Positions 2,519 through 57,475 are shown, counted from the first letter of the whole stretch. The stretch: DNA of 61,760 nucleotides, filler included, from Streblomastix strix (GCA_008636045.1; 3 parts of 3 records of this genome joined end to end with filler, not necessarily neighbours in it); one strand, 5' to 3'. The notes: generated by a model not told the origin, from the sequence alone. Program-made: numbers and translations.

Positions 2519-3950
2519 ATGTAAAACGAAAATAGATTATATGAAGATATATTAAGGACTTTTGCTGGTGAAAAATATCAAAGAGAATAATATGTATTTG
2601 ATGTATAATGAGATATTGATGGTAAAGCATATAAAGTTCATTATAAAATGACTCTATCAGAGTTCATAAAAAATATCCTTAAAATTGCAAAGAAAAAAAT
2701 ATCGATGTTATGGTAGAGAAAGCTGATGAAATAATTATTGGAAAAAAGAACAGTGTAAGAATAGTACTATTATTATTTTTCAGTTTAATCGCAGTATCAA
2801 CCTACAAAATATTAAAATTAATAAAAAATAAAAAAATGGAATAAGATCTAAAATATGCTGTTTAATCATCCAGTTCATCAACCACTTCATCATCCAGCTC
2901 AAAAATGGATTAATTATAAGTTTCAGAAGATATTCCTTACTTTTCCTTCAAATCAAATTTAAAATTGTTTGAAAAAAATAACAAATAAAAATATGCTAAT
3001 AATCAAAACTTACCAATAAACGATTATAAATTAAAACCATTATAAAGAGTAATACGGCCTTATTTCTCTCCAAAGTTGGGAAGTTGGGAAATAGATGTAG
3101 TCTTATCTGTCGACCAAGCATTGTAAGAAAATAACGATGAATATGATGCTGCTTTCTTTGAAAAAAATGAAATAAAAAAAAGAGATGAGAAACGTATTGA
3201 ACCTATTAAGAAAAAAGGCTTGTATTTTTTTTCTGCATAAACATTAATACGAAATATTTAGTGGTATATCCATTGATAGATAAATCTGCCGCATAGGTAG
3301 TTAGATAATTAAAAAACTGTTTAAAAAAAATATTATGTAAATAATATTCGTGGTGATGGAGAGAAAGGATTTAATGGTTCATATTTTGCTTTATTTTGTT
3401 CTGAGAATAAAATTAATGGTTATTTCACAGATTCAAAATTCACTAATCATAATCGAGTAGTCGATTCAGTTATTGGAACAATAAGGAATGCGTTTGGTTA
3501 TAAATTTAATTAATTTTCAACGAATCACTAAATGCAAATAGTCGTTGGTATATGCAATAATACACCACATCTAGCGTTTCAAAATAAATATAACCCATTT
3601 CAAGTTCAATTGTCAAGAGATTTAGAAGGACAACATATACGTTCATGAATGAAGAAATTATAACGATAATTAGCAAGAAAACAATAACAGGGCATATTAT
3701 CATTTAAAGCAGGAAATATAATATTAATACATCTTGATTTTTAAAAAACATAATAAAAATTTATGAAATAAAAATAAATTTCAAATAATTAACTGAATTC
3801 TTCAGTTATATAAATAGTACTGTTTTATGCTGATTATCGAATCATTCCTATCTAATAAATATTATAAAAATTACCTACGCATTATTGTAAGTATGTAAGT
3901 GAAAATAAAGAATCTATACCAGGATATTATGCAACAAAGTTTTAATTTGA
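2519..3950 (+). pseudogene. Retroviral-like (rve) integrase of Polinton type, frameshifted
   Basis: RPYFSPKLGSWEIDVV, FCININTKYLVVYPL, NNIRGDGEKGFNG, FTNHNRVVDSVIGTIRNAFG, CNNTPHLAF: the order of motifs in an integrase core. Confidence 0.8.
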
Positions 3951-4006
3951 TGAAATAAAAATAATAATTATAATTATTTATTTTTAATTTCCAATTTTAA
4001 TTAAAA

Positions 4007-4326
4007 TAACAGATAATCAAGCAATCAACGAATTAACACAAATTGAACAATAAATAGCTTCAGGTAAATATGGAATATCAAAGAAATATACCGATAAAGA
4101 ATAGACAACGATTGCTACAAGAGAACAACGCAAAAATGCAACAATCAGACATAAATAAAATTTAACTAATTATGTTTCAAAATTCAATGATATTCAACTA
4201 TTAATAATCAAAAAACATTAAAGAATAATCGTAAATTGTAATATTTTGATAATAATAAACGAATTGATTAAAAAACATGATGAGAAGCCACAAATATAAG
4301 AAAACAACGAATCAATCATCGTTTGA
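4007..4326 (+). pseudogene. Small hypothetical ORF of the Polinton-like element
   Basis: ITDNQAINELTQIEQQIASGKYGISKKYTDKEQ... ends TGA 4324-4326; start appears mutated (ATA). Confidence 0.4.
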
Positions 4327-7823: not shown

Positions 7824-8285
7824 GGTGCGTTACCTGTTATGATGGCTTTTTATCAATATAAACTATACTGGCTTTTTTAGGGCCACTATTATTTAATAAT
7901 AATAGTTTTATATGTTATATTGGCTGAATTTGATTTTTTATCTAAATTTTTTATTTTTATGGTTTAAATAATAAACATAAATGTTTATTTAAAATTAAAA
8001 TAATTAAATTTGTGCATGTAATAATGATAGGGTTAGGGTCTTGGTCCCCACGCGGCCTGCTCAAGCTTTCACCTATTCTAATGATAGGGTTAGGGTCTTG
8101 GTCCCCACGCGGCCTGCTCAAGCGTGTGCCTATTTTTTTAAGAAAGTTAGTTTAATTAAATTATAATGGCCTAAGCCAGTATATTTTCATTATTGGTTAG
8201 TAAGCCATTATAACATATGATACTGTATAAAAAGCCACTATATTTGAATTCATTGTTAAAAAGCCAGTATAACATGTAATGAACC
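7824..8285. mobile_element. Non-autonomous DNA transposon (MITE), possibly Merlin-type
   Basis: 8-bp TSD gagctgtt at 7816-7823 and 8286-8293. Imperfect TIRs ggtgcgttacctgttatgatggcttttt and ggttcattacatgttatactggcttttt; repeated subterminal tggcttttt motifs. Confidence 0.85.
8022..8135 (+). repeat. Two tandem 57-bp-period GC-rich units containing TAGGGTTAGGG
   Basis: The 45-mer taatgatagggttagggtcttggtccccacgcggcctgctcaagc is identical at 8022-8066 and 8079-8123. Confidence 0.95.
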
Positions 8286-8417
8286 GAGCTGTTCAATTCA
8301 ACTTGTTAAAAATATATTTATTCTATATTTTAATTCTGATGATTATTTAATAATATTTATATATAAATAACAAAGATAAAATATGAAGTGAAATTAATTT
8401 AATTGAGTTACAAATAT

Positions 8418-9618
8418 TCAATTTTAAATTCGCTGAAGATACGCAGATTCTACAGATCTAGAGAGCTGCAAAATTATAAATAATATCAATTAACATTTAA
8501 ATAAAAAAGAATATGCAAACTGTTTCAATTGATATTACAATACTCGAGAGTGTATCTTTGCATGCATCACATTCTGTATCTAAGCGTTCCTCTATATCTG
8601 CAGTAGAAGTCAGTAATCTGATTTCTAATTTATCTTCTTCTTCCTGACTAATGCGGTGGAATGCAGCAATCTCCTATTCCAACCTTCTAAGCTCTATCTA
8701 TGTCCTTGTCAGGAAATCACGCCATCCTTCTTCCATTGCTCGGATTCGATCAAGAAGTTACTGTAGGAGAGCATTCTCTTTTAAAGGAGCAACACGAAGA
8801 TTATTCTCCAGATCAATCTTATATGAAAGTAAAAAGAGAATGAAAGTAATGAAAATAATATAAGTAAAGAATAGACAAAGAATCATACAGCAATCTTTGA
8901 TGTTACAGGTTGGAGTTTATTAAACACAGCTTTTATCTTCTCAAGTCTTGTATCTTTGATTGAAAGATCAGTATCAATTATTTTGAGTCTTTTCTATGTT
9001 GCATCACATACTGATGAAATCTCCTTAAATCTTTCTTCATATTCTTTCAGCGAATTTGAAAGAGTTGTCCCAAATAATGTTTAGAGCACATCTCGAAGTT
9101 TCTTGAACTCAGAATCGCGTTTTGTTCGCTCAAGTTCCAAGTTATGATCAAGCTTAAGCACAATTTATTGCAGGATTACAACACGTGCAGAATCTTATTT
9201 CTTTAATTAATCCTATTAAGATTTAATTTTTTGGAGGAAATCTGGTACAGTGCTATTAATTTATTCAAGTCTATAGAGAAATATGGTTAATTCTTAAAAT
9301 AAAAATGTTTAAATACTTCTATACAATGTTAAACTATTGATCTTCTGTTATTTATTAAACAGCTTGTTATGGAGGAGATGCTTTAACAAGAGGAGATGCT
9401 TTAGCTGGCGGTACTGGCGATGCATCTTTTTGAATTTAATCTTGTTCTACTATTTTCTGTTAAGAAACCTCTTGTATTTTATTGCTTTCTTCTTATTTTT
9501 AAACTTTACTTTAAGTTTTTAAGTCTTTAACAGTTTGTTGCTTGGTTTTTGGCTTCGGTGGAGCTGATTTTCCTAATGTTTATTGTTTTGCTTTAGTTAC
9601 GCTCTTAGACGAATTCAT
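8418..9618 (-). CDS. Hypothetical coiled-coil protein with a Lys/Pro-rich N-terminus, about 4 exons
   Basis: MNSSKSVTKAKQQTLGKSAPPKPK...DHNLELERTKRDSEFKKLRDVL...RIRAMEEGWRDFL...SRSVESAYLQRIQN-TGA; GT-AG introns. Confidence 0.65.
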
Positions 9619-10268: not shown

Positions 10269-12836
10269 ATGACCTCCCCATCTGTAGTGAATAAAAGTGA
10301 GCGTATGATAACCGAATATTCTGAAGCAGGAAATGAAGATGAAGGTGAAGACGAAGGGGAAGATGATATTGAATTGCAATAAAAATAATAAACAGAAATT
10401 ATTCTAAAAAAAGAACCAATCAGTAAACGTAAAAGAAAGAAAAACTCGCTCTCTGTCAATTTAACATGTATATACATAATATTTTTTAACTTCAGTTTCA
10501 ATTTATTAATAATATTCTTTATTTCTTTGCTAATATTAGTATGTAAATATTAAGTGCTTAAGGACGTTATCAAAGAACTTGGATGGGTAGAAACAGAAGA
10601 TGAGAATGAATGGATTTTATTTTGGACAGACAGATCAGTCTGTGCAGATCGATTAAAGAGGATGCAAAGTTATCAGAAAATAAATCACTTCCCAGGAATG
10701 AGGTAAATTAATTATCAATATTTGCTGAATTTAATATATAATTATCATTTATTTCATTTATTATACTATCATCATTCATTTTATTTAATTTATTAATATT
10801 ATTTTCTACGATTAATATATTGTCATCATTCATTTTATTTAATATATTATTTTTAGCGAAATAACTCGTAAAGTTTGATTAATAATAATCATATTTAATA
10901 AAAATTTTGATAATTTTTTATATCTTTAGGATTGTTTAGGAAGAAATATGAACAGAATGAAGAAGCTCTATCCTGAAGAATATAAATTTTTACCTAATAC
11001 TTGGATTCTACCACATGAGTATATCAATATTTAACGTTAAAATAATATTTTTACCAATTAAAATATGATTATTAATTTAATTTTCAGTTACAATGATTTA
11101 AAAAACTTTTGCTAAAATCATCGAAATACAAAAACGTTAATAGTGAAACCAGATGCAAGTTGTTAAGGAAGAGGAATCTTTCTAACTCGAGATCCAGACT
11201 CAATTTCATATTCAGATGATTTTGTAGTATAAACATATTTGTCTAAACCTCACCTTATAAATGGATACAAATATGATATTAGAGTGTATGTTCTAGTTGC
11301 ATCATGCAGTCCTTTATGAGTATATCTACACAAAGATGGGATAATACGTTTTTGTACAGAGAAATATGAAAAGCCATCTTCAGAGAATATCACACATCAA
11401 TACATGCATTTAACCAACTATGCAGTTAATAAGAGGAATAAGAATTTTGTCTTCAATAAGAATAAAGAAGCTGATGATGAAGGAAGTAAGTGGTCTCATG
11501 CATCATACAGAAAATATATGGAAGAACATGAAAAAGTGGATATTGATATGTTGTGGAAACGTATTGGATTGTGCTGTGTAAAGGTTTGTAACATATTATT
11601 TCATTATCATTGAAATTATTATATTAATTATCATTGAAATTATTATATTTATTATCATTGAAATTATTATATTTATTATCATTGAAATTATTATATTTAT
11701 TATCATTGAAATTATTATATTTATTATCATTGAAATTATAATATTTATTATTTTATCATACACTTTTAACAGGTGATAGTACCAATTCAATCTATTTTAT
11801 CCCATACATATACCATTTGTACTCCAGATGATTAAATTACAGCTAGATCGAGCATGTGCTTCGAAATCCTTGGTTTTGACGTTATTCTGGACAATTAACT
11901 TGAACCACATGTTTTGGAGGTAAACCATTCCCCATCTTTTGCAACGGACACACCCTTAGACCACCACGTTAAAGTATATTATTATACTTTATTATTATTA
12001 TTATTATTAATTCTCATTCTTCTTATTGTAATTTTTCTTTATATTATTAGTTTTCAGTTATTCGTGATACTCTTATTCTTATGCACATTAATACATCTGA
12101 TAAATTTACATGCAAGAGAATGTAAAGATAATAACATCTTAAAAGAATTCTTCGACCTATTTAATAGCGACCATCATCTCCGTTTGATAAATAAGATAAA
12201 GAAAGAACTGAAAGAGACAATAAATCAAAAGGAATAAGAACATAAGGTCAAATATCTTCAAACTAACCTTAATCATAAAATTAGTAACTTTCAAACTAAA
12301 ATACTGATTTAATTCCGTAAAGATCAGGAAGCGCGTAAATAAGATCAAAAACATCGAATCTAATTAAGAAGAAGACTCCAATATCAATAAAACCCTTTGA
12401 TCCATAATTGTGGGAATAAAATCATTTAGGAGAATTTATTAGAATTCATCCTATTCCAGAAACCGAAGGATTTGAAAGATTTATTATTTCACCCGAATAA
12501 TTCTTTGCAGCAGAAACAGCATCGTCAAAAGCAAGAAGAGAATAAATACAGCGTTCAAATGAAGAGAAAGAAAAAGAAAGATAAAAAATAGCATCAAATC
12601 GACCATATGGAAGTTCTATTTAATTAACAAATGCAAATACAAATAATTCAAACATTTCTTCTTCATAGGCATAATCAGTATCTGGAAATATATAAAATAA
12701 ATAATCATCATCATCTAATACTTAATTATAATCAGTAAATTCAAATAATAATATAAGATGACCATCAGCTTAAAGAAGCAATCCATTTCTTCCTTAATTT
12801 CCTTCTTCCTCACCAACACCACCAATTGATACAAAC

Positions 12837-12906
<70 letters not shown>

Positions 12907-15900
12907 CAATATATTCATAATATGCACCTCCTGGAACTACATAAGTTAGTAATATCCAACAGAGAACATCATACAGCGCAACTGGATAAAGTAGTACAAT
13001 TAATATAAATGAATAAAAAGAAAATAGAAATTAAAGAAATAGAAAAAGAGTAAACAGAAATATAACATGAAACAGAATAAATTAAATAGAACTTCCATAT
13101 GGTCGATTTGATGCTATTTTTTATCTTTCTTTTTCTTTCTCTTCATTGAAATTAATATATTTATTTTTCTATCATACACTTTTAACAGGTGATAGTACCA
13201 ATTCAATCTATTTTATCCCATACATATACCATTTGTACTCCAGATGATTAAATTACTGCTCGATCGAGCATGTGCTTCGAAATCCTTGGTTTTGACGTTA
13301 TTCTGGACAATTAACTTGAACCACATGTTTTGGAGGTAAACCATTCCCCATCTTTTGCAACGGACACACCCTTAGACCACCACGTTAAAGTATATTATTA
13401 TACTTTATTATTATTATTATTATTAATTCTCATTCTTCTTATTGTAATTTTTCTTTATATTATTAGTTTTCAGTTATTCGTGATACTCTTATTCTTATGC
13501 ACATTAATACATCTGATAAATTTACATGCAAGAGAATGTAAAGATAATAACATCTTAAAAGAATTCTTCGACCTATTTAATAGCGACCATCATCTCCGTT
13601 TGATAAATAAGATAAAGAAAGAACTGAAAGAGACAATAAATCAAAAGGAATAAGAACATAAGGTCAAATATCTTCAAACTAACCTTAATCATAAAATTAG
13701 TAACTTTCAAACTAAAATACTGATTTAATTCCGTAAAGATCAGGAAGCGCGTAAATAAGATCAAAAACATCGAATCTAATTAAGAAGAAGACTCCAATAT
13801 CAATAAAACCCTTTGATCCATAATTGTGGGAATAAAATCATTTAGGAGAATTTATTAGAATTCATCCTATTCCAGAAACCGAAGGATTTGAAAGATTTAT
13901 TATTTCACCNNNNNNNNNNAGAAGAAGACTCCAATATCAATAAAACCCTTTGATCCATAATTGTGGGAATAAAATCATTTAGGAGAATTTATTAGAATTC
14001 ATCCTATTCCAGAAACCGAAGGATTTGAAAGATTTATTATTTCACCTGAATAATTCTTTGCAGCAGAAACAGCATCGTCAAAAGCAAGAAGAGAATAAAT
14101 ACAGCGCTCAAATGAAGAGAAAGAAAAAGAAAGATAAAAAATAGCATCAAATCGACCATATGGAAATTCTATTTAATTAACAAATGCAAATACAAATAAT
14201 TCAAACATTTCTTCTTCATAGACATAATCAGTATCTGGAAACATATAAAATAAATAATCATCATCATCTAATACTTAATTGTAATCAGTAAATTCAAATA
14301 ATAATATATGATGACCATCAGCTTAAAGAAGTAATCCATTTCTTCCTTAATTTCCTTCTTCCTCACCAACACCACCAATTGATACGAATATATAATAGTA
14401 ATAGTAATAATAATCAATTTATTCATAATATGCACCACCTGGAACTACATAAGTTAGTAATATCCAACAGAGAACATCATACAGCGCAACTGGATAAAGT
14501 AGTACAATTAATATAAATGAATAAAAAGAAGATATTAATATACCATATTAATAATAATCAAGTTAATTCTGGTAATAAGTTAAATCAATTACTGATAAAA
14601 ATGAATCGAATATCACCTCAAATTAAAATTCGTAAAACGATTCATCAAATTAAATTCAATCCAACTAATAAAGTTAAGCCAATTAAATAAATAATGATAT
14701 TAAAAGAAGGTAATCATTATAATTTATAGTAATGCATCCTCCTCCATCAGATTATACGTGGATACTAAATAAATCAATTGATTTACATTCTAATAATAAA
14801 GAAATTAATAATAAATAAATAATTAATTAAGAAATTAGTGAAAATGTTACTTTACAGAAGAAAGAGATTATAGCTGGTTTATAACGAAGATGGAGTGCAT
14901 CTAATTAGAAATAATAAAAAGAATAATAATAGGAATAACAATAATAAGAATAATAATTAAAATATAAGAAAGATGCAATCTTAGAAAGATACGAATTGAT
15001 GAAATAATTAAATTTCAAATAATTTGCATCTTAAATTGTTGAATATGGTAAGAAAGGTGGAGGAAAGAAATAACACATTTCAATTGCACAATAATAAATA
15101 GATTAATTATAAGAGAAAAATAAAATAATGAAGAAAAAATAAGTTGAAATATAATAGACTGATAGTTCAGATAAAGAATATTATGGATAACAATTTATGA
15201 AAGATAAACTTTCTAATGAAACTAATGATGATATAAGAATGAGAAACAAAAGAAAATAAATTAATGAAAATTAAGTTTAAAATATTAATGATAATAATAA
15301 AGAAATAAATCAGTTATAATAATAGTAAAATCAAACAAATACAAATCAAATCATTTCATAAACTTCATCACTACTCATATAACAACCTATTAATTCTTAG
15401 ATTGAAAATTCAAATTTGGAGTAATCCGAACAACAATAACATATACAATCCATTTCACATATATTTAATTAATAACAATCAATACCCATTTCATCACAAT
15501 AATAAATATAACCAATAAATATATCTTCTTAATCTTAAACAAATCCGTCTTCATTTTTTAATCATATATCAGAATCAAATTCGAATTAAGAATCTTTTAA
15601 TTCATTATAATTAAGTTAAAGATCATTAACATCTTCTGGCAGACCAAGACCCCAATCAAAGACTTCATAATCATCAAATCAAAATACTTAAACTGGAATG
15701 TCAGCATCAAAAGATGAAAATGAATATTAACTAAGATAGTCTAGATCATCCAGTGCTGACTCAAGATAGAAATAAGCATTGAATAATAAAGAAAATATTA
15801 TTTTAGTTATTAATTCAAATCGTTATGATGAAGATCTTCGTTCTAGCTAATTGTCGAATAGATTAAATTCAGTAAGGAGTATATAGTAATAAGATAATAT

Positions 15901-16666
15901 CATTGATTATAAAAACTTTGAATCTAATAATATAAATCCGATCACAACTTCAAATATTACTTTCAATGGATTAAATAATAATAAAAATAACTATTAAAAT
16001 TCAATATCTACTGCAACGAATCATCTCCCAATTGCATATGTATAACAACAAATCAAACGAAACTCAATGTTTGCACCATCTTCCTATTAAGCAAATTCAA
16101 ACATCACTGATAATAATAGCAGAAGTAGTGATAATATTAGTTTAAGTAGTAGAAAAGAACATTAATAAGAAACAAATTCATAATAATTTGAAGGGAGAAT
16201 ATCCAAATCTCCCAATTCAATATATTCATCTACATCATCATCATCCATTCAATAAACAACAAAACCTTATCATAGAATTAATTTACATATCTCATCTAAT
16301 AACTAATTATCACCACAAATATCATCAATTAAAAACCATACATTACTTTCATAAAATCCTCTTCTTTATTAATCACGTTAATCTCCATCATTCTACACTT
16401 CAAATATTAATCAAAATAATACAAATTCATACATATTTCAATCTTCTAATTAAATTCGATCATCGCCATCACCTCCTGCTGCTAAAAAACCCGGTACACA
16501 ATCTTCATCATCCTCTTAATCATCTCCTCGTCCTAAAATCAACTAGAATTCGCCAATATTAACTGGGAGCAGGATAAGTAGTCGATTAAGCGCAGATCAA
16601 ATACATATATTATCACCACCACTACTAAGATCAATTGAAGCAAGAAAATTGAATGGTCAAATATGA
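10269..16666 (+). CDS. Tubulin polyglutamylase TTLL6/TTLL13-like with a long Q/N/S-rich tail; contains an internal duplication and in-frame TGA codons
   Basis: QKINHFPGMSEITRKDCLGRNM, IVKPDASCQGRGIFL, KYDIRVYVLV, MHLTNYAVNK, CFEILGFDVILD, LEVNHSPSFATDTPLD, HLGEFIRIHP, ETASSKARREQ. Confidence 0.9.
11604..11747 (+). repeat. Intronic 24-bp minisatellite, about 6 copies
   Basis: Unit ttatcattgaaattattatattta in tandem, no spacers. Confidence 0.9.
12840..12905 (+). repeat. (TAA)n tract encoding poly-Gln in the TTLL frame
   Basis: In frame with DTNI-QQQ...-SIYSQYAPP; the second copy (~14392-14412) mixes TAA and TAG. Confidence 0.85.
13063..14530. repeat. Near-identical duplication of TTLL exons (about 11755-13020) with a short inverted piece and a 10-N gap
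   Basis: 13170-13909 repeats 11755-12493; 13920-14530 repeats about 12367-13020; 13083-13147 is the reverse complement of about 12558-12622. Confidence 0.9.
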
Positions 16667-17090
16667 ACACCTTATAAAATATCTAGTTTTATTACATTTT
16701 TACCAATAAATACAATTTTTACAATTAATTAATATGGCCTTGGGGTTTAGTTTTATTCTTTTGGCGTTTTCAAAATTTCAATTTGGAACGTGATTCTTAG
16801 CCGCCTGTTTAGTAATTTCTCTGTATATATTTATAATAAACAAATATTAACTTGATCTTGCATCACTATTATTTGCATCATCTGACACATTGTTGGTGTC
16901 GAATTTGAGAATCCAAATCTTCTATCAGTTTTATACAATAATTCCAACACTAATTATTAATTTTTTTATAAGAATTTTTATCTTTCCATCGAATTATATT
17001 GTCTTTATTGTCTATTTTATTCATTATTGAATTTATTACAGTTATTTTACTCCCTATCGTTTTTTTTCAACAAATCAATAATTTAGCAAA

Positions 17091-20566: not shown

Positions 20567-20666
20567 NNNNNNNNNNNNNNNNNNNNNNNNNNNNNNNNNN
20601 NNNNNNNNNNTTAATTAATTAANNNNNNNNNNNNNNNNNNNNNNNNNNNNNNNNNNNNNNNNNNNN
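20567..20666. other. Artificial contig linker
   Basis: N-run + ttaattaattaa + N-run; the same linker recurs at 41226-41325. Confidence 0.95.
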
Positions 20667-29080: not shown

Positions 29081-29680
29081 GCTGGAAAGATGATATATAG
29101 CAAAGGCGGATGATTCAAAGTATATAAAAATGACAAATTTGAATAGCAAACTCTATACTTCTTTCCGCATGAATTCAAACTTCTGGATCCTCACTAAAGA
29201 TTATCTTTTGAAGTTGCTTATGAGACATTTGAAGATGTAAGCATTACTCTGCCTGAAATGAATGGATCAAAACAGAAGCACATGTTGGAATCTCTGCAAC
29301 TGATTACTCATATTTATAATTCTAGGACGTCAATACAATTGATGTTCACACACAAATTGGAATATCTTCATCAATAATAGTTAATAAACTTTCTTATTTC
29401 TATAATCTATTGGGTCCTTCATTCATAATAGATATAGCATGCTCATCCACACTTTTTTCGTTGAATTGCACATGTCAATCTATTCGTAATGGTGAATGCA
29501 GATCAGCTTTATGTGGTGCAGATAATCTGAAAAGGTTTCTTGAGATTACAATTCGAATCAGTGAATTAAGAGTACTCTCTCCAGATGGATAATGTAAAGC
29601 TTTTGATGATTCAGCCAATGGATATGTGAGATCTGAAGGTGCTGGATTACTTTCTTTGAAACCACTCTTTGATGCATAAA
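29081..29680 (+). pseudogene. Type I polyketide/fatty-acid synthase ketosynthase (KS) domain fragment
   Basis: LLDPHQRLSFEVAYETFED, KLSYFYNLLGPSFIIDIACSSTL (active-site Cys 29440-29442), LSPDGQCKAFDDSANGYVRSEGAG. Confidence 0.9.
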
Positions 29681-32600
29681 CAGTATGATGTAGAATATGA
29701 CTTTGCTCCATTTGTAATTGAACGCGTTATGGATGTGTGTCTCCAGATTGTTGAGATCTACTATCACATCGTTATTGATTAGTTTATTATACTGTGTTGC
29801 GAATATGTCTATCCGTGGCATGTAGTTCCATGTCTTGCAGATCATTTAAATCATTCCGTCCGTCAGCGTGTAGTCTCCTCATCTGCGCAGTTTCGAGAAT
29901 GAGTCTATTGTTGAGTTCAATTTTCCTGGGATGTTGATTGTTGCGATTTATAATTGAAGTCTTTTCACTAGGTAAATTACTTGTTTTATTCTTTCTATCA
30001 GGAATTCCTTCACTTTCCATTTCCCAATATCGTAGACTGCTGTTGTGTTGTCTGAATGTATCAAAACTACCTGATCTTGCATCTTCTTGAAAACTTGCTC
30101 GAAACGAAGTAGCCCGTAATAAATAGTTTTAATTTCCTTAGCACTGCAAGTTATTTGTACTTTTTTTTCGCTTTATCAGTCGTGTTGTACTAATTCTATT
30201 TGATTATCGTATATCAGCATTGCTACCCAACCCTGTGGTGATGCGTCTATTGTTGACATGCATGTTACTGTTTTGTTAATCAATAACTCTGGTTGATTAT
30301 CTCCTATTCTCCTTAAGCACCATTCCAGTTCTCTGATTACTACTCTGTTTACTATCGTTGTCTCGTCCCATGATTTTGTCTTCAATGCTTGTGTCTTCGC
30401 TTTATCCAATTTCATTAGATACGGAGACGCTTCTTTTATATAGGGTCTAAGGAAGTTTATTCTGCCTATCAGCGCTGCTACTTATCTTATCTTCACGCTT
30501 TTATTTTTATATGTTGCGTTGCACCTGTCCTTCAATGCTTGAATCTTTTTCAACTTTCTTTCTTATGACATTCTTATATTCATTTCCTTCAGATTCCACA
30601 TCTATCCCAAGAATGTTATTATCTATTTCTGTTCTGTTTCGCATTTCTCTGCTGATATTGTCCATCCGAACTGTTTCAATGTTCTCATTATTTCAATTGT
30701 TTATGTTTTAAATATTTATTTGTCTTAGTGGATTAGAAGTATGTCATCGCAGTAGTTCAGAATTTTAATTTCTGAATGTATTCATATTTATCTAAGGATT
30801 TATTTTATTTCTTCTGCGAAGAAGATTGAACTATGATTAGTCCCAAAAAGCTTTTTTAATGCATAATTTTAAAATTAAATGCTAGGTATGGTATTGAGTT
30901 TGGAGATACTGTGATGTGGTGAAATGCTGATTTGTTATCGAGGGATGTTGCATAATCCATTTATTTTGCTAGATTATGGACTTCTTCTAGTCCATGCATT
31001 TTAAAGCGTAATTTATCTATTTTCTTATTCAACTTATTCGTACCCAGAATCTTTCTCCATGTTCAATTGGATTTCATTATCAGGAATGTATGATTCCACC
31101 ATTTCACTTAGTCCTATCAAATAGGCATCACTATTCCTTCTTCCAATTCTTCCTTCAACATTTCTTGATAGACTTCTTTCTCTTCTTCCGTTCCTCTAAG
31201 TGAGATTATCATTTTATTTTCATCTAATCTCTATTAACTGTTTAAGTCTTTGAATCTCAGATAAAATCCAGTGTTTATGAAATCTTCTTTCCCTATCTGT
31301 TTCCATGCTTATATGAATCTTTTAGTCTTTCCTCCCATTCCGTTTTCCTTTTCTTTATATATCAATTCTCCAATCCTTTCCTCCATCTCCTGAGGTGCTG
31401 TCCTCATCAGCTCGCTTCTCTACTCTGTTCCAGATGGAGATCTCTACGCTGATCTCCCTTAGTTGGAACGTCCCTGCCCGACCAGGGGCTCTACTCCCAT
31501 TCATCCTCATCGTTAGAGTTTTCTGGTTCTGATATAACCTATTTGGCTTTTTTCGTGCCTTCTTTGGGCGTAACCTTATGTTTTGGAACTGTGGATGTTG
31601 TTTATGTTTGAGCTTGGGCATTGTTGCCCTAGTTTTATTACTCAGAGGCATTCAAACCTTCTGTTTTTGATTTTTTACTTCCTCTTCCTTTCTTAAGCTT
31701 CACCTGTACTCCAACTAGAGCAAGGCCTGGATTATCTTTATCCATTTAACTAAAAGCATTTAAGCCTTGACTATTATATGGTTGTGTACCCAGATTCTCT
31801 TAAACTGGGAGCTATGAAATTATTCTAACTCTATAGTCTTTGCTTTGGATTAGAGCTGTTTCATTGGTTTATTCATCTTCTTCCTCTTCAGCATTATCCT
31901 CTTGGCCTTCATTTATTTAAGGATCTGTTCTTTCCTTATTACTGGCTGATATTGATCCCGTTTCTTTTAGCCTCAGCTCTGCATTAATACTTGGGCTCTG
32001 AGCACCGGAACACGGTTACAAACCAGTTAACTGTCCAATAGTTCCCTGAATAACAGATATATCAACGTTCATGTTGTTGAGATAATTTTTTCCTTATTGT
32101 AGAAGCTATTGACTTGCTTGTAATTATTTCAATTCTCTCCAAAATATCTTTTATCTTTATTTAACTCCTCCTTTATGAGCAGTTTTCTATGTTGTGATAT
32201 CAAGTCATTGTGTTAAGCTACTTTATTTGTCCTTGTTTATTCACGTACTAATTATCCTTGGCACTGATGAAACTATCTTTCATTAAGCTTTAAAGCTAGC
32301 TATTTATTATTGAATTTGTTATTTTGCAACTTAGTTGAAGACTGATTATTAATTCATTTGTTATTATTATTATTGTTGGGCTTATTTGGATGTATGGGAA
32401 TTATTATTATCTATTTCTGCAATTACTTGTTGCTAATCGTTCTCTGAGTCAGATATACCATATTATTCTTTATCTTTTTATAGAGCAGCTAACTTCACTT
32501 GTAGTATTTCTTATTCATCAATGTCGTCTTGATTTGACGGTGCATCTTTTGTACCTCTCTATCTTGGTATTTAGACTGGGGCCTGTTATTTTGGTTATAT

Positions 32601-34685
32601 TTGTACATGTTATATTCGTTAAGTTTGTTTGACTGATTACTTTGGTTATGGTGCTGTTATTTGATTTTGAGGGACTTCATCTTCTGTCCAGTTTGAGTCT
32701 CTATCACTATGGTTTTCAGGCGGATCTTTTTGCATTTGTGTCCGTTTTGTCCACTCATCATTTGAGTTGTCATACCAGCCTACTCCTCTATTCCTGTTAT
32801 AATATTAGTGTATCCTATTCCAGTTTAGTGGATACTTTGTCTTGCTAAAGATCTATTTTGTATTTGGATTATACTTTTTTGCTTCTCTATTTCACTCTTA
32901 ATATGATTGTTCTTTATCTTAATAGCTTTATCTTTTTCCATAGTAGTTAGAATCCCTTCCTCTAAACGCTCCCCGGCCTCTGCCACTCGGTTCGCCTCAG
33001 GTTTCAAATCCATTCTAATTTCCATCGTCATCCATTCTAGTTTCTCATGAACCTTAGTAGTCTCTCGATCTCAAATAACCTCTTGATCCTGATCATTATC
33101 TTGATTAGCATCTTCTGTCGGTGGAGTCATATCTTGATCTCTTGTTGCGCGGTGATATGGATTTACTTTTATGTCTTCCAAATCTATTTCTAAATTCCTG
33201 TCTTGATGTTTTTGCAGGTTGTAATGTATCTGAGTCGTCTTTTGAATCATATTCTTTCCTTACACATGCTACTTTCAAATCAAAATTGTATTCTCTCTAA
33301 AATGCTCTAACTTCATCCATCGAAGGTGTTTAACCTTATTGTTTTGACTTTCTCCAATTTGTCGCATGTGGTACACGTGGACCAAAGCCTGGCCAATACT
33401 GTCCTTCATCAACCTTGCCTACTGGAATTAGATCGAATCCTTTAAGCATCCAACTACACATGCGATCTTTGATAGTTTCTGTCGTCATTACATTTAAAAT
33501 TTCTGGTATTTATTATTCTGCATTCAATGCAGGAAGGAAAATCGTTAACTATAGTATCGTTGCGTTTCTTGATGCACATAGTCCTGTTGGTCCTTGTCCT
33601 GGTGGAGGTTGTCCTCACGGTCCTGAGTTTGGAGGTAACTTATCGTTATGCGCTATTGTAATCTGGATTTCTTGGTTTTGTTCAAGGGCCTGGTTCTCGT
33701 TTTAGTACAAAATTGGTCTAATTATTTGTTTCCAGATTACTGATGGTGTTAATTGGCAAAATCTTTTAGTTTTGACTCTTTCTTTTCCCAGCTGCTGGAT
33801 TCCGAACAGTAAATTCGTAACTCCTGTCGTTTCTTTGTTCGCTATTTTGCTCCATGCAATGATTTGTGCTCCCAGCATGATTGATATTGTTTCGCTATTC
33901 AAGTGTAAGTTAATTGAATTCGCACCCAAGTAATAATAGTTTGCGTTGGCCAAATTTTCGTTTTACGATCTTGCAAAGTGCGTCCACTCGGCTTCCCTTA
34001 TGTTACGGATCATCTAACTAAGTACTTCGATTGCCAGTTGTTCCTGTTGCTGTTCACACAAGTGTGCCAGTATTCCTTCACCTATTCTGAAGTTGTATAA
34101 CGCCAGTGCTTGCTCGCTCTGCAAAATTTTGTCGATCGGACTGCGCTTCGAGTCTAGTACTTCGTCTGGTACTGGTACCGATGTAATGGATAGTTGCGAA
34201 ATGCATTATATCTCCCTTCTCCAAACTTCGCCGTTCTGTTCGTAAAGGATGTTTGTCGCCCAAAAATCAGTCTCACTCGCTTGTACGTCAGTCATCTCTT
34301 CCAAGACCTTTGCCAAAAGCGTCTGCGTCCTCTCACTGACCGCCTGTCTCGAAGTTAGTTGTCGCTCGATGTCCTGTAGCGTCGGCTGCAGCTCGGACTG
34401 ATGAAACTTCCCGATCTCGTCTCCCATCTCCGGTAGCTCGTTAATGGTTGTGACAGGTATCTTTGCAGTGAACTTCGGTGGGTAGAAATTCACAAATAGT
34501 CCCGGCTCTGACGGTTCCGGTTTTATTGAACTATTTGATATTTTTGAAAATGGCCATCTCATAGATCGGATGCCTGTTCGTGCACCGATCATATTGAAGC
34601 CACAATGGTATCTCAATAAAGAGGTGGGATAAGGAGAGAAGGGGGTAACCTATTATTATCCTCGTCTCCCTTGGAGACAGGGTAA
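29681..34685 (-). mobile_element. Decayed DIRS-like retrotransposon (gag-like ORF, RT, RNase H, methyltransferase-like domain); 3' truncated, no tyrosine recombinase seen
   Basis: ORF1 MRWPFSK from 34562. RT: WWNHTFLI..WRKIL, ATSLDNKSAFHHI, NYCDDILL (~30738-30760). RNase H: STIDASPQGW, IHSDNTTAVY. MT: IDIFATQYNK..NAFNYKW. Many frameshifts. Confidence 0.85.
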
Positions 34686-35251
34686 GTATTATAATAAAGA
34701 TAAAATGTAAGTTCTTTGAAAAAGATGATTAAGATTATTTTAATACTCATTTATCGTTAGCAAATTTTGAATTTATTCATTTTTATTTATATGAACATGC
34801 TTCCATATACCTCATTTATATGTCCAATACTTTTCTGTCATTAAAGTAATTGTCCAGCGATTTTCCATTATTTCTTATCTAGGCTCGCAATCGGCTCTAT
34901 TTTATTTACATGGGTGCAATACATGATATTTTTTATAACTTCTCCATATTTACGACAGAAAGTCTGATTTCAATATGTGGCGAGTGTTGGAACAAAAAAG
35001 AAAAAAACCCGAGTTTTGTCTTCAAAATCAATCATAGTATATGTATTTCTAAATCAAACTCTGCATAAATATATTTTTACTAACATTTAAACCGATTTAA
35101 ACAGTTTCCTTATTTATTTTATCGCTTGGCGTGGCATTTTATGATTTCTACACAATAATCTTTTTTTCACCCACATTTTGACTAAATAACACATAAATAT
35201 CAAATAATTATTTTTATTTTGTAGTAAATAGCCTTAAATAAATTACATATT

Positions 35252-38200
35252 ATGAGTTCACTCTCTCCGGAGAAGGAAGAATTGATAAGGTAAGATTAGA
35301 ATGCAATTTCTCAGCAGCTTGGCTTATAGGTTAATTATACTTCCTTATTGTAAATAATATAACTGTATTTTATTTTATTATGCGAAGAACCCATCACCGT
35401 TGGGAGCCGGAGCGTGGGGCCGTGTTTATCGTGCATAGGATTTATATGGTTTATTTATTAGCTTTATTATAATCTTTACAATATTCAATATTTTCTTTTC
35501 TTAATTGCACTTAATATTCTTTTTTATTTTATTTAATATATTCTTTTTTTAATATATTCTTTTCTTTATTTTATTTAATATATTATTTTCAGGGTAATTG
35601 TTGGCTATCAAAGTACAGAAATTGGAAGAGTATTTAGACTCCGAATTTGCCGCTGCAGGCATTCTTGAGAATATACCAACACCATATTTTGTAAAAACAT
35701 TTGGAAAAAAGGAGTTAGGAGACAGAGTATTCATAGCGATGGTTTGTTTTATATCACTTTTTTTTATATATATTATCTTTTTAACTTTCTTGTCTTTTAT
35801 TTTCTTTTTTTCTTCTCTCAGGAGTACGCTGACATGGGTGTTTGCTTTATTCAATTTCATTTTTATATTTTTGATAATTCCTTTCGTACACCATGTTTAG
35901 TCTTTAGAAAAAACAACTGATGCATGTCTTATGCCGAGAGTAAGTATTTTGGGTTTATAATAATTTCTTTTATGATCTAAAATGCTTGAATTTTACTATT
36001 TTTTGTATTATTCTTTTAATTTACTAGTTATTATTGCTCATGATCTCTGTATGAATATTTTTTGGTTATTATTCATTATATTTCTTAAAATATATAATAT
36101 TTAGTGGAATTTCTTTCTCACCTTCATCGTAACTTTCTTGTTCATTGGTTTTTTTATTACTTTGCTGTATTATTTTTATTTTTATTTTTATCAAATTTTA
36201 TTCTGACAGTAATATCAAGCCTTCAAATATTGTATTAGCTCAAGTGGAATATACCGACAACTTCATTCCAAAGATGTGCGATTTTGGTGAGAGTGCAGGA
36301 ATGGAAATGATGAAAACTTCGTTAGACATTGGAGGGTATACTATATATTAATATTAATATATATTTCATTGAATTGATTGTTTATTTTTCTTAATTTCCT
36401 AATATTTAGATCTCCATTCTTCCATCCGCCTGAAGTTAGAAACAAGAAGGGTAATTACGATGGCGGAGTTGATATATGGGGATTAGGAATTGTACTTTAC
36501 TTGCTGGCAACTGGGAAGTATTTTACAATTCAAATTTATTTTATAATAAAGAAAATAAATTAATTTATATTTATCTTATTTTTATTCTTATTCTCAGGAG
36601 TATGAATCATCCACGTGCATTCTTTGCGTTACGATAATATGGGTTAGTTCTCCCTTCTGATCTTTAGATGATTACAGAACCTCCAACTCCAATGCCTCAT
36701 GTTAAATGTTTGAGAAATTCAAGTTAATATTATCAGAAAACCGTTACTTAATTTTTATTATATTTTTTTTATTTAATTATTCTTATTTTTATATTTTTTT
36801 AATAGAGTAAGAATTGAATATATTTTAATAAGATCTATTGCTTGATAAAAATGGAGTTCATTTGAAAGTATATATATTTGAGAATTATTCCATTTTATTT
36901 AAAATTGAATTAAAATATATTTTTTATTTCAATCTTCAATCATACTTTTTATTATTATATAGGATACAATGGGTAAGGATTTTCTTCAGCTGCTTAGTTT
37001 GATGTTAACTGTCGACCCAGTATTAATATGAATTAATAATAACAATTAATTAATAGAATTAATTTATTAATATTTAATTATTTTATTCATTCAGACAAAG
37101 AGACCTACAGCTGCTCAACTGCTCATGCATCCAGTCTTTACAATGGCTGATAATAATATAACCAGCATACCCATTTCTTATGCAAATGAATTGGGAATAT
37201 AAAGTATTTATTATTATTATATTTTTTATTAATAAATAAATTAATTAATTTTATTATTATTATTTCTTCCATTTCAAATTTAAAGTTGATTTGAGGAGTC
37301 AACTTGTTTCTGCTCGTGTTAGACCTGTATTCATCCATTTATTCTTTTTTATAAAAAAATAATTTTATTTTTATTCTATAAAATAAAAGGGAATCTAAAT
37401 TTCTAAAATTCAATTAGAAAAACAAGTCACATTGAATGGTTTGCAAATAATAAATTTTTTTATAAACAATAAATTTTCACCATTAATGTATTATTTTTTT
37501 CATTTTAGAGCGTTTAAATCAAGAATAAGCAGCAATACGACAGCAATTTGGATTGGAAGTTGATGAAATAATTGCAAAATTAATGATGTATAATTAAAAT
37601 TATTATATTATTATTATTATTAAGTATATATTATTTTTTAGAAATGATGCCTTTGCCAACTTCGCAACAATTGAAGACTTATATGCAAAATTATAAGAAT
37701 ATGAAGATTAACAACTACATTTTATGATATCCAAAGATATTATCCAAGCTTTGACTAATGCTACAATACGATGCATCTTTGATTTTGCTCCCAATACTCC
37801 ACTTACACAATCTGGATAATCTTTCTATCGTAATAAGAGTCAAAATTATATTGAATCAGATTAGAGAGCTAAGATATTGTTAATTCGTTCTCATTACAGT
37901 TATATGATTGCAATATTCGTAGATATTCAAACTAAGTTCAAACGTGGAAGAGAACGTGTTAAATAAATCTTTGCAGATACAGTACTTTAGGAACTACTTG
38001 TGAGTTTCCTTGAACCTATATATAACATTTAAAAAGAATTTCTTGAAGCTTTGGATAATACAATTCCATTCTTTGCCCCAGAACAAGTGAGAGATCTTGT
38101 AAAAAGTAAAGAATTGATTCTTTATTTGAGTTAAGCAGCTGTAATGTTTTCTAAAGTCAAACCAGATATCACGAATTTAGCTATTAAAATTCTTGCTGCA

Positions 38201-40929: not shown

Positions 40930-41225
40930 ACAATTAACAATCGCTAATGTGAATTCATATCAATACATTCTTTATCTTTAACTTCTTCATCATATCTTAA
41001 TCTATTCATTAACCACTTTTTCCTCATTTCACAGAATTCATTCATATCCATCAACTTTTCTCAATTCAAGTAATAGCGTTATTGAATAAATAAATCTGAC
41101 AATAAAAATATTGACATTTTTGTTTTTAATTATTGTTATATTTTCTATAATTTTCTTTCAAATTTGTTGTTTGGTATTAATTTGATGTTAAATTATATTA
41201 ACTACTGAACCATGGCTGAAATATA

Positions 41226-41325
41226 NNNNNNNNNNNNNNNNNNNNNNNNNNNNNNNNNNNNNNNNNNNNTTAATTAATTAANNNNNNNNNNNNNNNNNNN
41301 NNNNNNNNNNNNNNNNNNNNNNNNN
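41226..41325. other. Artificial contig linker
   Basis: N-run + ttaattaattaa + N-run. Confidence 0.95.
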
Positions 41326-54400: not shown

Positions 54401-57400
54401 AGGGATAACAATTTCTTTTTTTTCCTTAGATCAGTTTAGAGTATATTTACATTTTGAGGTGTTTCTTAAGTTTAATTTTCTTAAATTGCCATTTCTGAAG
54501 CAGATACTATATCTTGGAATAATTACGTTCCTTTGTTATTTTTTGCAAATTATGCCTACAATTATTTTAGTCTATTTTCACTTTTCTCTTTTATTAATTT
54601 ATTATTATTTTATTAATCCAATTATTTCAATTTTATTAATGATGGTCTTTTTCTTGGTGATGAATTTATTTCTTCTTCCTATTTCTTCTTCTTCTTTTTC
54701 TTCTTTTATTCATTCTCTTCTCCAATATAAATATCTTCATCATTATCATAATCTTATTCTTCAACAATGTCCAATTTCTGCTCCTTATTTTTTTATTCAA
54801 TCAATCTTTGCCTTCCTTCACCTTCAATTGTGATATTTGTTTGGCAATACTTAGTTGAAGATTATTTTTTGACTTATTTCATCAGGTCTTCAATTTATTG
54901 CTTCAAATACTAAATTAATTTATCTTTAGACAATTCTCTAATATTATAAATTAAAATTAAAATATTAATAAGAAATAACAATCAATATAAATTAATAATT
55001 CCAATCAATTTCTATAATTTTATTTTTCTATGTATATTTTTTTCATACATTTAATCTCTTTGTTTCAAATCATTTTCTAAATTTTCTTTTTCTTTAATTA
55101 ATTTTTCAATCTCTATTTTCAAATTTACAATTTATGCTTCAAGATTTGAGTTATTTTATGTTAAATTATTATTATTTTCCTATAAATTAAAAATTTCTTA
55201 TTTCAATTATTAGATTAAATCGTCTTATTTTGAATCACCAAGTTATTTATATACAATTTTTTCTATTGTTCTCAATCTTCCATCATTTCTATTCAAAAAT
55301 GAATAAATATATAGATTAAATATAAATATTAAGATATATAATAGAAATAAAATATGAAAAAAGAATGAAATTTTTATTAATAAATAATTACTAATAATCC
55401 ATTTATTTAATTTATTTAAAATACATTATTTTTTAATCTCCATTTTCGTCCCATTCATTATTTTATCCTTCTCCATTATCTTAAAATTTATTATCACTAA
55501 AGTCTTTTGGAGAATATGAAATATGAGGAACTTTTGACAGTTGATGTGGAGTTGGGGTTGGTTATGGAGAAATACTAAATCTATCATAATCATTTTCTTC
55601 TTATTATTCATCAAATGATTAATCTTATTATTATTACTATTATTATTACTATTATTAATATTATTTCGGTGATTGGTATATTTATGATTATTACTGTTAT
55701 TGTTAGTTCGGTGATTGGAATATTTATGATTATTTCCTTCTCAATTTTTCTCTGTACTCTCATTAATACTATTTTTATTCATCTTCATATTATTAATAAG
55801 GATATTTCTGTTAAATTAATAAATTAGATTTTGATTATCTTTCATTCATTAATTATATTTACAATTTTCTTTTTCTTTATTAATTATGTATTTGTTTCTA
55901 AGAATTTGATTTATGAATTTAGTCCTAATTCTAATAAGATAATTATGATGGTGATTAAGATGGTGAAATAGAATATTAAGATTTAGATTAAGATAAGAAT
56001 GAAGAAGACGTTTATGTAGTCTGAATAAGATGACTATTATCTTTTTGTGTCTTATTATTAATTTAATCATTAAATGAAGTGAAAGAAATTCTATCATCAA
56101 TATTATGTTCATGATCTTTCTATTCATTTGTTTCATAATCAAAATATTCATTATTTTACTTTGATATATTTTTATTAAGTTAAATCGTTTGATTATCTTA
56201 GTCTTATTATTTTAGATCTTTTAAACTTTATTTTAATTATTCAATATTTTATCCATTTTTTTGTAATTATTAATCATGCAATATTTTTCTCTCATTAACA
56301 AATTAATTTATTTTATTAAATTCTTATTCAATTTTTCCTTCTATTTCTTCTTTTCCTTCTCTTTCAATCATTTTTAATTATATTTCTTCATTTATATTAT
56401 TTTTTTCTATTTGAATATTTGGACTTTCATATGAGTTTTGAATCATTTCTTATTATCGGTCAGTAATTTTGTTATATTGTTGTAATTATTGTTGTCGAAT
56501 ATCCTTTTGAGACACATGTTTTCTAATATTTGGACTGCTTTGTATTGATTGTATTTAATTACCATCTAATATGTTATTAATTTATTTATTATTGATTTGA
56601 TCATTATTATTATTTGCATTAATTCTTGATGTCTATTATTTATCTCTTTATCTTTAATTAATAATTCTTCCTTCAATTTCATCCATATTCTCATTTTCAC
56701 TTCTATTACTGTTACTCATAATATAATTAATACTTTCTGTTGTATTCATAACATCAATTTCACTTCTATTATTCTAATTTCTTCTTCCTTTTCTTTCTTT
56801 ATCTCGAAATTATCCATCATTTCTTTCTTCATTTCTTTCTTCATATGAGTTCATATTTCTTTATTATGGTTGTGATTCAAATGTATTCAATAGTAATTAA
56901 GATTATTATTGAGATTATTGAGGATGAACTTAGAAAAAAGGATTTGAATCTTGATCACTCCATACACCTTAATTAGGAATAATTGATACTATTATTTTAT
57001 TATTTTATTCATCTCCACATATTGATCCAGTTAATCTTGCAACTTCTGCTTAATTTAATAAATTTGAAAATGATGAAACTAATTTATTTAATGATTTAGG
57101 TTATTGCCAATTTCCTTGCCATCATTATTGTTTTTATTGTGGATATTATGTTGTTTAATCTTGTCCCACGAACTTATGTAACGCAAGAGGAACAACAGTC
57201 ACCGTTTTCTCAACATTATTCTATCCAGAAGGTAATTATCGTTTAGATTTCATTCTTTCTGTTCCAGTTCCAAAAATAATTTCGTGTTTTCGAATAAGTT
57301 CATCTTCTTCTTCTAATGTCAGACCTCCTTTTTCTTTCCCATAGGGAGATTCGAGAATTTTGAGTGCTTCTTTATCCACATTTCTGGTTGAAAAAGCAAT

Positions 57401-57475
57401 AGCTGAAGTCTGAGGACGATTCAGAAGTTATAAAGGCAGTTTGAGACCAACTTAAATTTGTTTTGTGCTGCGCAT
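51429..57475 (-). CDS. Large Q/N/E-rich coiled-coil protein with a C-terminal C3HC4 RING finger; contains in-frame TGA codons; 3' end uncertain
   Basis: MRSTKQIQVGLKLPLQLLNRPQTS...; DLTCNICLKVLREPVTFIPCGHTICRRC ... CPNC..RNFIVESM; GT-AG introns. Confidence 0.75.

Follow-up and report, generated by a model that had tools for sequence, protein, structure and literature searches.

Streblomastix strix is an oxymonad in which TAA and TAG stand for glutamine and TGA is taken to be the only stop codon, and the locus described here raises the question of whether TGA, too, can be translated. The locus lies in a stretch of 61,760 nucleotides (nt) from the genome assembly GCA_008636045.1, referred to below as the window, and contains a gene resembling that of the tubulin polyglutamylase TTLL6, whose reading frame holds TGA codons at 11317, 12759 and 14309-14314. 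Judging from sequence, we give about even odds (roughly 0.5) to the reading that these TGAs lie within the coding sequence of a single TTLL6-like gene and are translated rather than terminating. That they mean arginine is a tentative proposal. Equally tentative is the wider picture of an oxymonad without a dedicated stop, in which UAA and UAG would be glutamine and UGA would be arginine internally and a stop only in terminal context. The analysis covers this one 61-kb window, and all conclusions rest on it. Its guanine-plus-cytosine (GC) content is 23-43% in 2-kb bins, mostly ~27%. Two artificial joints, six-frame stop linkers of the form N44-TTAATTAATTAA-N44 at 20567-20666 and 41226-41325, show that at least three contigs are strung together in the window; an SLC12 gene seems to run on across the first joint.

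The gene (coordinates of this and other features are collected in Table 1) is predicted to encode a polyglutamylase. Its exon borders were inferred from the sequence and the alignment of homologues, and its tail is interrupted in the assembly by a mis-joined second haplotype. The Pfam TTL domain, PF03133, is matched at 164.9 bits over residues 13-237 (10879-11613; cut-off 20.1), and the exon at 11776-11973 matches it at a further 49.2 bits. Among solved structures the closest relatives of the domain are polyglutamylases, namely TTLL6 (6vzt, E 7.4e-40), TTLL7 (2.2e-37) and TTLL11 (3.9e-31), and not tubulin tyrosine ligase (TTL, ~1e-9). There are 188 homologues, the best at 44-46% identity, and JGI names on the matches read 'tubulin polyglutamylase TTLL6/13'. 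Among the JGI metagenome contigs scanned we found only four relatives (39-52% identity) and no orthologous locus. The frame at 11904-12761 includes the C-terminal motif region of the family, LGEFIRIHPIPETEGFERF, followed by AGA TGA. The window gene shares with the TTLL6/13 family a TTL domain and a long low-complexity C-terminal tail; unlike the family, it has internal TGA codons.

TAA and TAG are read as sense by this organism. The TTL-family gene, the SLC12 transporter and kinases of the window are open only in translations that take both codons as sense; seven such codons fall within the TTL-domain translation and 101 within the 783-codon frame of the tail. Glutamine is the established meaning of both codons (TAR) in Streblomastix, according to PMC13002328, which also mentions single-cell transcriptomes of this organism, and the top 37 database matches of a retroelement in the window, at 49-76% identity, are labelled Streblomastix strix. 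A search of sequencing runs with 14050-17000 recovered 0.94 of the sampled words in a DNA run from a termite gut metagenome (X1) and 0.05 in a second run from another study (X2). X1 is possibly the source of the window itself, in which case its contigs are a re-assembly and not an independent sample.

The TGA at 11317 lies in the catalytic core. The Pfam match spans this codon (X147 of the translation) as one continuous stretch. In the 25 of 188 homologues aligned here the column holds arginine in 23 and serine in two, with no tryptophan and no gap, and the TTLL6 structures read SCDPLRVFVYNEG at this position. A related X2 contig, ~87% identical to the window with mostly synonymous differences, continues after 11306 as T TCT CCA CTT AGA ATA TAT TTA CAT AAA GA, which translates as C-S-P-L-R-I-Y-L-H-K-D with AGA as the arginine codon. 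A paralogous X1 contig (depth 88.8) likewise has AGA, within ...ATG AGA ATA TTT CTA CAC. The site itself is covered by one X1 contig only (depth 46), identical to the window over 11085-11580. Since a single contig is found here, yet both variant unitigs were kept at the tail, TGA 11317 is probably carried by both haplotypes, with the proviso that contigs can drop variants. The code 6 rule that TGA never occurs inside a coding sequence fails at this codon, within an ungapped TTL match; the rule would still be compatible with a null allele.

The remaining TGAs of the gene stand in its last exon, where the original prediction had described an exchange of AGA and TGA between two copies of one TTLL exon. 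The sequences on which it relied are exactly as quoted, ATA AGA TGA CCA at 12753-12764 and ATA TGA TGA CCA at 14306-14317, and the synonymous differences that it named are all present (ccc/cct at 12494, cgt/cgc at 12554, agc/agt at 12779, and TAA/TAG at 12728, 12890 and 12896). The exon does belong to a TTLL gene and both sequences are real, but the two are probably haplotypes stitched together in tandem rather than genomic copies. Repeats in this region have a period of 1416 nt (families D4 and D7), and the run of ten N in the second unit is flanked by identical 127-nt stretches, 13783-13909 and 13920-14046 (D5). An inverted stretch of 68 nt between the units is likely a chimeric join. A Logan contig of X1 (3644 nt, depth 46) matches 10300-11629 and then passes directly to 13142-13391. 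The intron at this place holds a 24-nt tandem repeat of about seven copies in the window (11576-11767); copies are much less numerous in the X1 contig that skips from 11629 to 13142, and repeat number seems to differ between the haplotypes. At the AGA/TGA site itself, the depths of the two variant unitigs sum close to that of their shared flank (~46). Because of the repeats, the duplicated flanks of the gap, the inverted junction, the X1 contig and the unitig depths, we read the units as, most likely, two haplotypes of one TTLL locus that were wrongly joined in tandem. The alternative is a true tandem duplication.

The differences between the haplotypes were compared codon by codon. In the exon at 11774-11973 they are ACA/ACT and AGA/CGA, both synonymous. 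The last exon upstream of the TGA has synonymous differences at 12494, 12554, 12689 and 12728 and replacements at 12613 (Ser/Asn) and 12669 (Ala/Thr); at 12756, AGA in one haplotype faces TGA in the other. Downstream of the TGA that both share, all seven substitutions (12779, 12833, 12836, 12890, 12896, 12911 and 12929) fall on third positions and are synonymous, and a length difference of 45 nt in a TAA repeat keeps the frame. With a chance of ~0.25 that a random substitution there is synonymous, seven out of seven corresponds to p=5e-5, the five out of five outside the TAA repeat to p=0.0011, and the 13 synonymous differences among 15 in the whole compared coding part to p=3e-7. An open frame on the minus strand would take replacements at these sites and is therefore not the constrained one. 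The non-repeat parts of the stretch after the TGA have a GC content of 0.32, against 0.09-0.13 in the five introns of the gene and 27-38% in its exons. A codon model trained on the other genes of the window scores the stretch at +0.97 and +0.58 bits/codon in the TTLL frame. For comparison, true-frame windows have a median of 0.38 in leave-one-gene-out tests, off-frame windows never reach 0.58 (0/1120), and the five introns range from -0.39 to +0.23 in any frame. By these measures of substitution, composition and codon use, the tail downstream of the shared TGA evolved under constraint.

Beyond the TGA pair of the second haplotype, the open frame of about 780 codons that had been predicted to reach 16666 was recovered, with a count of 783. 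Block-wise first-order shuffles that kept the local dinucleotide content (TGA rate 2.1% per codon) gave no TGA-free run of at least 700 codons in 200 rounds, compared with five in the window; runs of at least 400 codons number 18, where the shuffles lead one to expect 0.8. The tail scores +0.40 bits/codon in its frame and -0.21 and -0.42 in the others. Nine of the 14 listed differences from X2 are at third positions of this frame, and its first ATG comes only ~139 codons downstream of the TGA.

A screen of every TGA with at least 90 open codons on both sides, in which the plausible genes were followed, points to a second gene with the same pattern. From an ATG at 57475 on the minus strand, frames of 154, 453 and 158 codons are parted by single TGAs. 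The codon-frame score is positive across both TGAs (0.0 to 0.77 per 25 codons) and mostly negative in the other frames, no GT...AG is found near either codon, and the exon is apparently spliced to long exons farther downstream that end near 53311. The gene has no homologue at E<=0.001 among 7989 candidates and no Pfam match. Because there are no homologues, no residue is assignable to its TGAs. There is no frameshift in this gene or in the TTLL gene, the latter over about 1500 codons. In-frame TGA is rare, at about five in roughly 8000-9000 confidently coding codons by a rough count. Both host-gene TGAs with a readable counterpart pair with AGA, which makes up 2.04% of the codons in confidently coding frames and only 9.7% of those that differ from TGA by one step. 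The base after TGA shows no usable difference between candidate sense codons (G, C, T, C, T, G, A) and presumed terminal ones (A, G, A, T, T, G, A). The TGA that closes a long frame is in many cases followed by further TGAs 0-6 codons on; the next TGA lies within 12 codons after 10 of 26 long frames, against ~24% estimated by chance, which is only suggestive.

A damaged retroelement copy (29303-31651, minus strand) served as a pseudogene control. In its close paralogues the columns of the four alignable TGAs mostly hold, in turn, Gly in 11 of 12 sequences, Arg in nine, Lys in three and Ile in two of 14, Cys in 14 of 17, and Ser in 13 of 14. Its N-terminal part is frame-shifted, and a conserved Trp column adjoining one TGA holds Gln. 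As the alignment indicates, these TGAs are ordinary decay from several codons. TGA 35976, in a kinase gene at 35.3-36.3 kb, was considered as the conserved Arg of CK1-type kinases and rejected, its paralogues (eight matches, six of them aligned) placing the TGA in an intron; a PDB search with this kinase gave no match. Selenocysteine recoding was also rejected: there is no Rfam match (SECIS, the selenocysteine insertion sequence) in the window, where no Rfam family reaches its gathering score, and the residue aligned to the core TGA is Arg rather than Cys or Sec.

If the TGAs of the TTLL gene are sense codons, the ribosome would pass them by inserting an amino acid. Arginine could be supplied by a near-cognate tRNA-Arg(UCU) that mispairs with the first base of the codon or, alternatively, by a dedicated tRNA with anticodon UCA, and the release factor would win only in terminal context. 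UGA would still end other genes, many of which have several TGAs clustered at their ends, and on this evidence it would probably serve in this organism as stop and as sense codon alike. The TGA TGA tandem of one haplotype would call for efficient decoding and not rare leakage, if that haplotype is functional. A number of observations weigh against translation. Only one in-frame TGA is at a conserved, alignable position, and the TGAs at the tail are spanned in frame by a candidate intron pair, GTAAAT...CAG, within the published size range. Haplotype divergence is higher there (8 substitutions in 228 nt) than upstream (6 in 684 nt). The AGA paralogue, with its higher depth in X1, could supply the function if the TTLL copy were dead. 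TGA is absent from three long frames (977, 813 and 1146 codons), and a kinase, which has the clearest gene end in the window, terminates at TGA 40927, beyond the last of its conserved motifs. The TGAs of the retroelement match mixed residues, so that simple damage is another source of TGA in this genome. The runs matching 14050-17000 include no RNA run, a scan of the window found no tRNA genes, and literature searches turned up neither an oxymonad with sense UGA nor a nuclear code that reads UGA as arginine.

Part of this would be expected if the TGAs were real stops. The TTLL copy would then be a young pseudogene or null allele, created by AGA to TGA at 11317, with its normal stop at 12759 and a relic or another gene downstream. 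The AGA/TGA difference at 12756 would merely drop the last residue, a nearly neutral change next to a true stop; TGA does appear to terminate other genes of the window, the genome has decayed genes with TGAs from several codons, and the X1 paralogue (depth 88.8) retains AGA. We nevertheless regard this as unlikely, in that a relic or untranslated region would not give seven synonymous substitutions out of seven (p=5e-5), +0.97 bits/codon and 32% GC right after the TGA, and has no ATG to offer for ~139 codons. Nor does it agree with ~1500 codons free of frameshift, with the lack of a TGA-free alternative unitig at 11317, or with the same pattern in the second gene. Frameshifts and a lost synonymous bias, the signs of a pseudogene, are not seen in the TTLL exons, in contrast to the retroelement. 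It is less probable still that the tail TGAs are intronic, the AGA/TGA difference an ordinary intron polymorphism and the core TGA an unrelated nonsense allele. The candidate intron begins with GTAAAT, as does the first intron of the gene, and ends in YAG. At 183-228 nt it falls within the 46-229 nt of published Streblomastix introns, whose GC content is 9-38% with a mean of 23% (PMC1501061). Its divergence, ~4x that of the upstream exon, and its length polymorphism would suit an intron; chance at 2.1% per codon would put one or two TGAs into 61-76 codons of non-coding sequence, and TGA 35976 is a precedent for an apparently in-frame TGA that proved intronic. An exon is the likelier identity of this stretch all the same: its GC of 0.32 (non-repeat parts) stands against 0.09-0.13 in all five TTLL introns, its frame score is higher than in any off-frame window tested or any intron, seven of the eight substitutions are on the third position of the frame, and its 3' end, TATCCAACAG, is without the T-rich run of the other five. 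An intron would also leave 11317, 57124 and 55762 unexplained.

UGA might be a sense codon and yet mean tryptophan, or a mixture of Trp, Cys and Arg, the links to AGA being coincidence. Published abstracts deal with sense UGA in Condylostoma, in Parduczia and other karyorelicts, in Amoebophrya and in some trypanosomatids, and the candidate at 57124 adjoins TGG in a motif that contains W. There is little to be said for this possibility when the conserved column holds R in 23 of 25, S in two and W in none, both changes that can be traced exchange AGA and TGA, and the conserved W column beside a retroelement TGA holds Q instead of TGA. Sequencing or assembly error is the least probable source of the TGAs, and scarcely credible. 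The locus is visibly mis-assembled, with its N gap, duplicated flanks and inverted junction, and the runs that contain it are metagenomic; however, the X1 assembly, possibly from the data behind the window, reproduces TGA 11317 (depth 46), AGA-TGA (depth 36.5) and TGA-TGA (depth 17.7) with 0 differences. A sense UGA, best taken as arginine, explains all the observations, and the null allele and the intron each explain a part only. The claim of the original prediction that TGA is a sense codon exchangeable with AGA is in this light plausible, not shown. In its favour are a core TGA at a conserved arginine with AGA in relatives, purely synonymous differences, exon-like GC and the frame score, and on the other side are the candidate intron spanning the tail TGAs and the restriction to one window.

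Table 1. Features of the TTLL6-like locus and of the second gene, in window coordinates.
Feature	Position	Strand	Basis or detail
TTLL6-like tubulin polyglutamylase gene (predicted)	10306..16666	+	Pfam, PDB and homologue matches
Inferred exons of this gene	~10306-10468, 10540-10702, micro-exon 10857-10873, 10930-11018, 11088-11573, 11774-11973, 12051 to tail		
In-frame TGA, TTL catalytic core	11317..11319	+	motif SCSPL-TGA-VYLHKDG; translation ...VLVASCSPL-TGA-VYLHKDGIIRFCTEKY...
Haplotype/copy 1 unit	11715..13031	+	intron end, exon C, intron, last-exon start; repeat families D3-D7, pairwise alignment
AGA TGA, haplotype/copy 1 tail	12756..12761	+	X1 unitig 12698-12809, 112 nt, depth 36.5, 0 differences
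Candidate in-frame intron GTAAAT...CAG	12735..12962, 228 nt; copy 2 14288-14470, 183 nt	+	read from sequence
Inverted 68-nt junction between units	13080..13147	.	exact reverse complement of 12558-12625 (I1, 100%)
Haplotype/copy 2 unit	13131..14539	+	holds 10-N gap 13910-13919; repeats, pairwise alignment, X1 contig
TGA TGA, haplotype/copy 2 tail	14309..14314	+	X1 unitig 14251-14362, 112 nt, depth 17.7, 0 differences
TGA-free frame continuation, Ser/Asn/Gln-rich tail	14315..16666	+	783 codons, ends at TGA 16664
Second gene, first exon, low-complexity/coiled-coil protein	55428..57475	-	in-frame TGAs 57124-57122, 55762-55760

Several other stretches of the window resemble mobile elements. The retroelement used as a control is part of a tyrosine-recombinase-type (DIRS-like) element at 29303-36000 on the minus strand, with reverse transcriptase and RNase H, a GC content of 34-36% and many paralogues labelled Streblomastix strix. 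The first 4300 nt (plus strand) hold fragments resembling a Maverick/Polinton-type element, with an HNH-like motif and the family-B DNA polymerase motifs DFNYQYPS, KLAKNSSFG and YICGDTDS split across two frames; an integrase-like frame at 2620-4323 (plus strand) has in-frame TGAs at 3274 and 3646 and no Pfam match. A transposase-like gene at 23.4-25.1 kb, with in-frame TGAs at 23843, 24452 and 24836, is flanked by a stretch of ~180 codons (INEFPILFQFIWYTLFLSSFEWVRFALYMVSCRQSQY) that occurs twice, ~2 kb apart, at ~22900 and ~25000 (plus strand). Neither this gene nor that at 2.6-4.3 kb has a Pfam match, and their TGAs are without residue assignment. A frame at 44044-45390 (minus strand) resembles, in translation only, a DDE_1 transposase of the pogo/Tigger type (SDGCKCHVNHEVLQILADNNIALIMTLPNSTHYLQVLDLGVFG). 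A GC-rich frame at 43790-41331 (minus strand; 43% against 27% locally) consists of 659 and 249 open codons with TGA 41813 between them; it is Pro/Gln-rich, has no Pfam match and could be foreign or mobile DNA.

Three further stretches lie on the plus strand. The sequence at 29100-29760 resembles a beta-ketoacyl synthase in its N-terminal half (GPSFIIDIACSSTLFSLNCTCQSIRNGEC). Five TGAs in ~35 codons and a change of frame precede it, and it is probably a fragment of a gene. The kinase at 35300-37200 belongs to a lineage-specific family with eight database relatives and many short AT-rich introns; the window copy has SDSN, and its paralogues have HCD in place of HRD. At 37436-40930 a frame of 813 codons with no stop upstream leads into the first exon of a kinase at 39583, which is in another frame, and the two may be one intron-joined gene with a long N-terminal region.

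Should the TGAs of the TTLL gene be translated as proposed, Streblomastix would be a further independent lineage, beyond ciliates, trypanosomatids and syndineans, in which all codons are translatable. Streblomastix would also have the first nuclear code in which UGA is arginine, so that AGA/UGA exchanges behave as synonymous; we know of no nuclear code with this assignment. Gene models built under code 6 would be truncated at internal TGAs or would bridge them with false introns. The locus would offer a natural case for how termination works when the sole stop codon is also a sense codon, and would tie a codon reassignment to near-cognate reading of UGA by tRNA-Arg. If the proposal is false, the locus is still useful as an illustration that a change of code can be mimicked by allelic mis-assembly and by young nonsense alleles.

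The TAA and TAG codons in the TTL, SLC12 and kinase domains of the window agree with NCBI code 6, the code of Streblomastix, in which TAA and TAG are Gln and TGA is the sole stop. The window departs from it in the TGA inside the coding sequence at 11317 and, by all sequence criteria, in those at 12759/14309 and in the second gene. In the ambiguous stop/sense nuclear codes (tables 27, 28 and 31) UGA means tryptophan, whereas the column of the core TGA in the window is mostly Arg with no W, and in-frame TGA is rare here. Near-cognate readthrough of UGA in eukaryotes with the standard code inserts Arg, Trp or Cys, according to work in yeast and human cells. It usually amounts to a few percent and is tied to contexts such as UGA-CUAG. 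By analogy, a tRNA-Arg(UCU) that reads UGA as Arg would fit the AGA/TGA pairs of the window. The contexts here, TGA-GTA, TGA-CCA, TGA-TGA, TGA-TGG and TGA-GAG, are unlike those of readthrough, and because one site is in the catalytic core and two TGAs are consecutive in one haplotype, efficient decoding would be needed. According to published abstracts, ambiguous stop/sense codes have arisen several times, and in one case UGA is read by a tRNA-Trp(CCA) whose anticodon stem is short. The code of the window would resemble those of Condylostoma magnum, Parduczia and other karyorelicts, Blastocrithidia and Amoebophrya sp. in that all three stops would occur inside genes while UGA would still end them.

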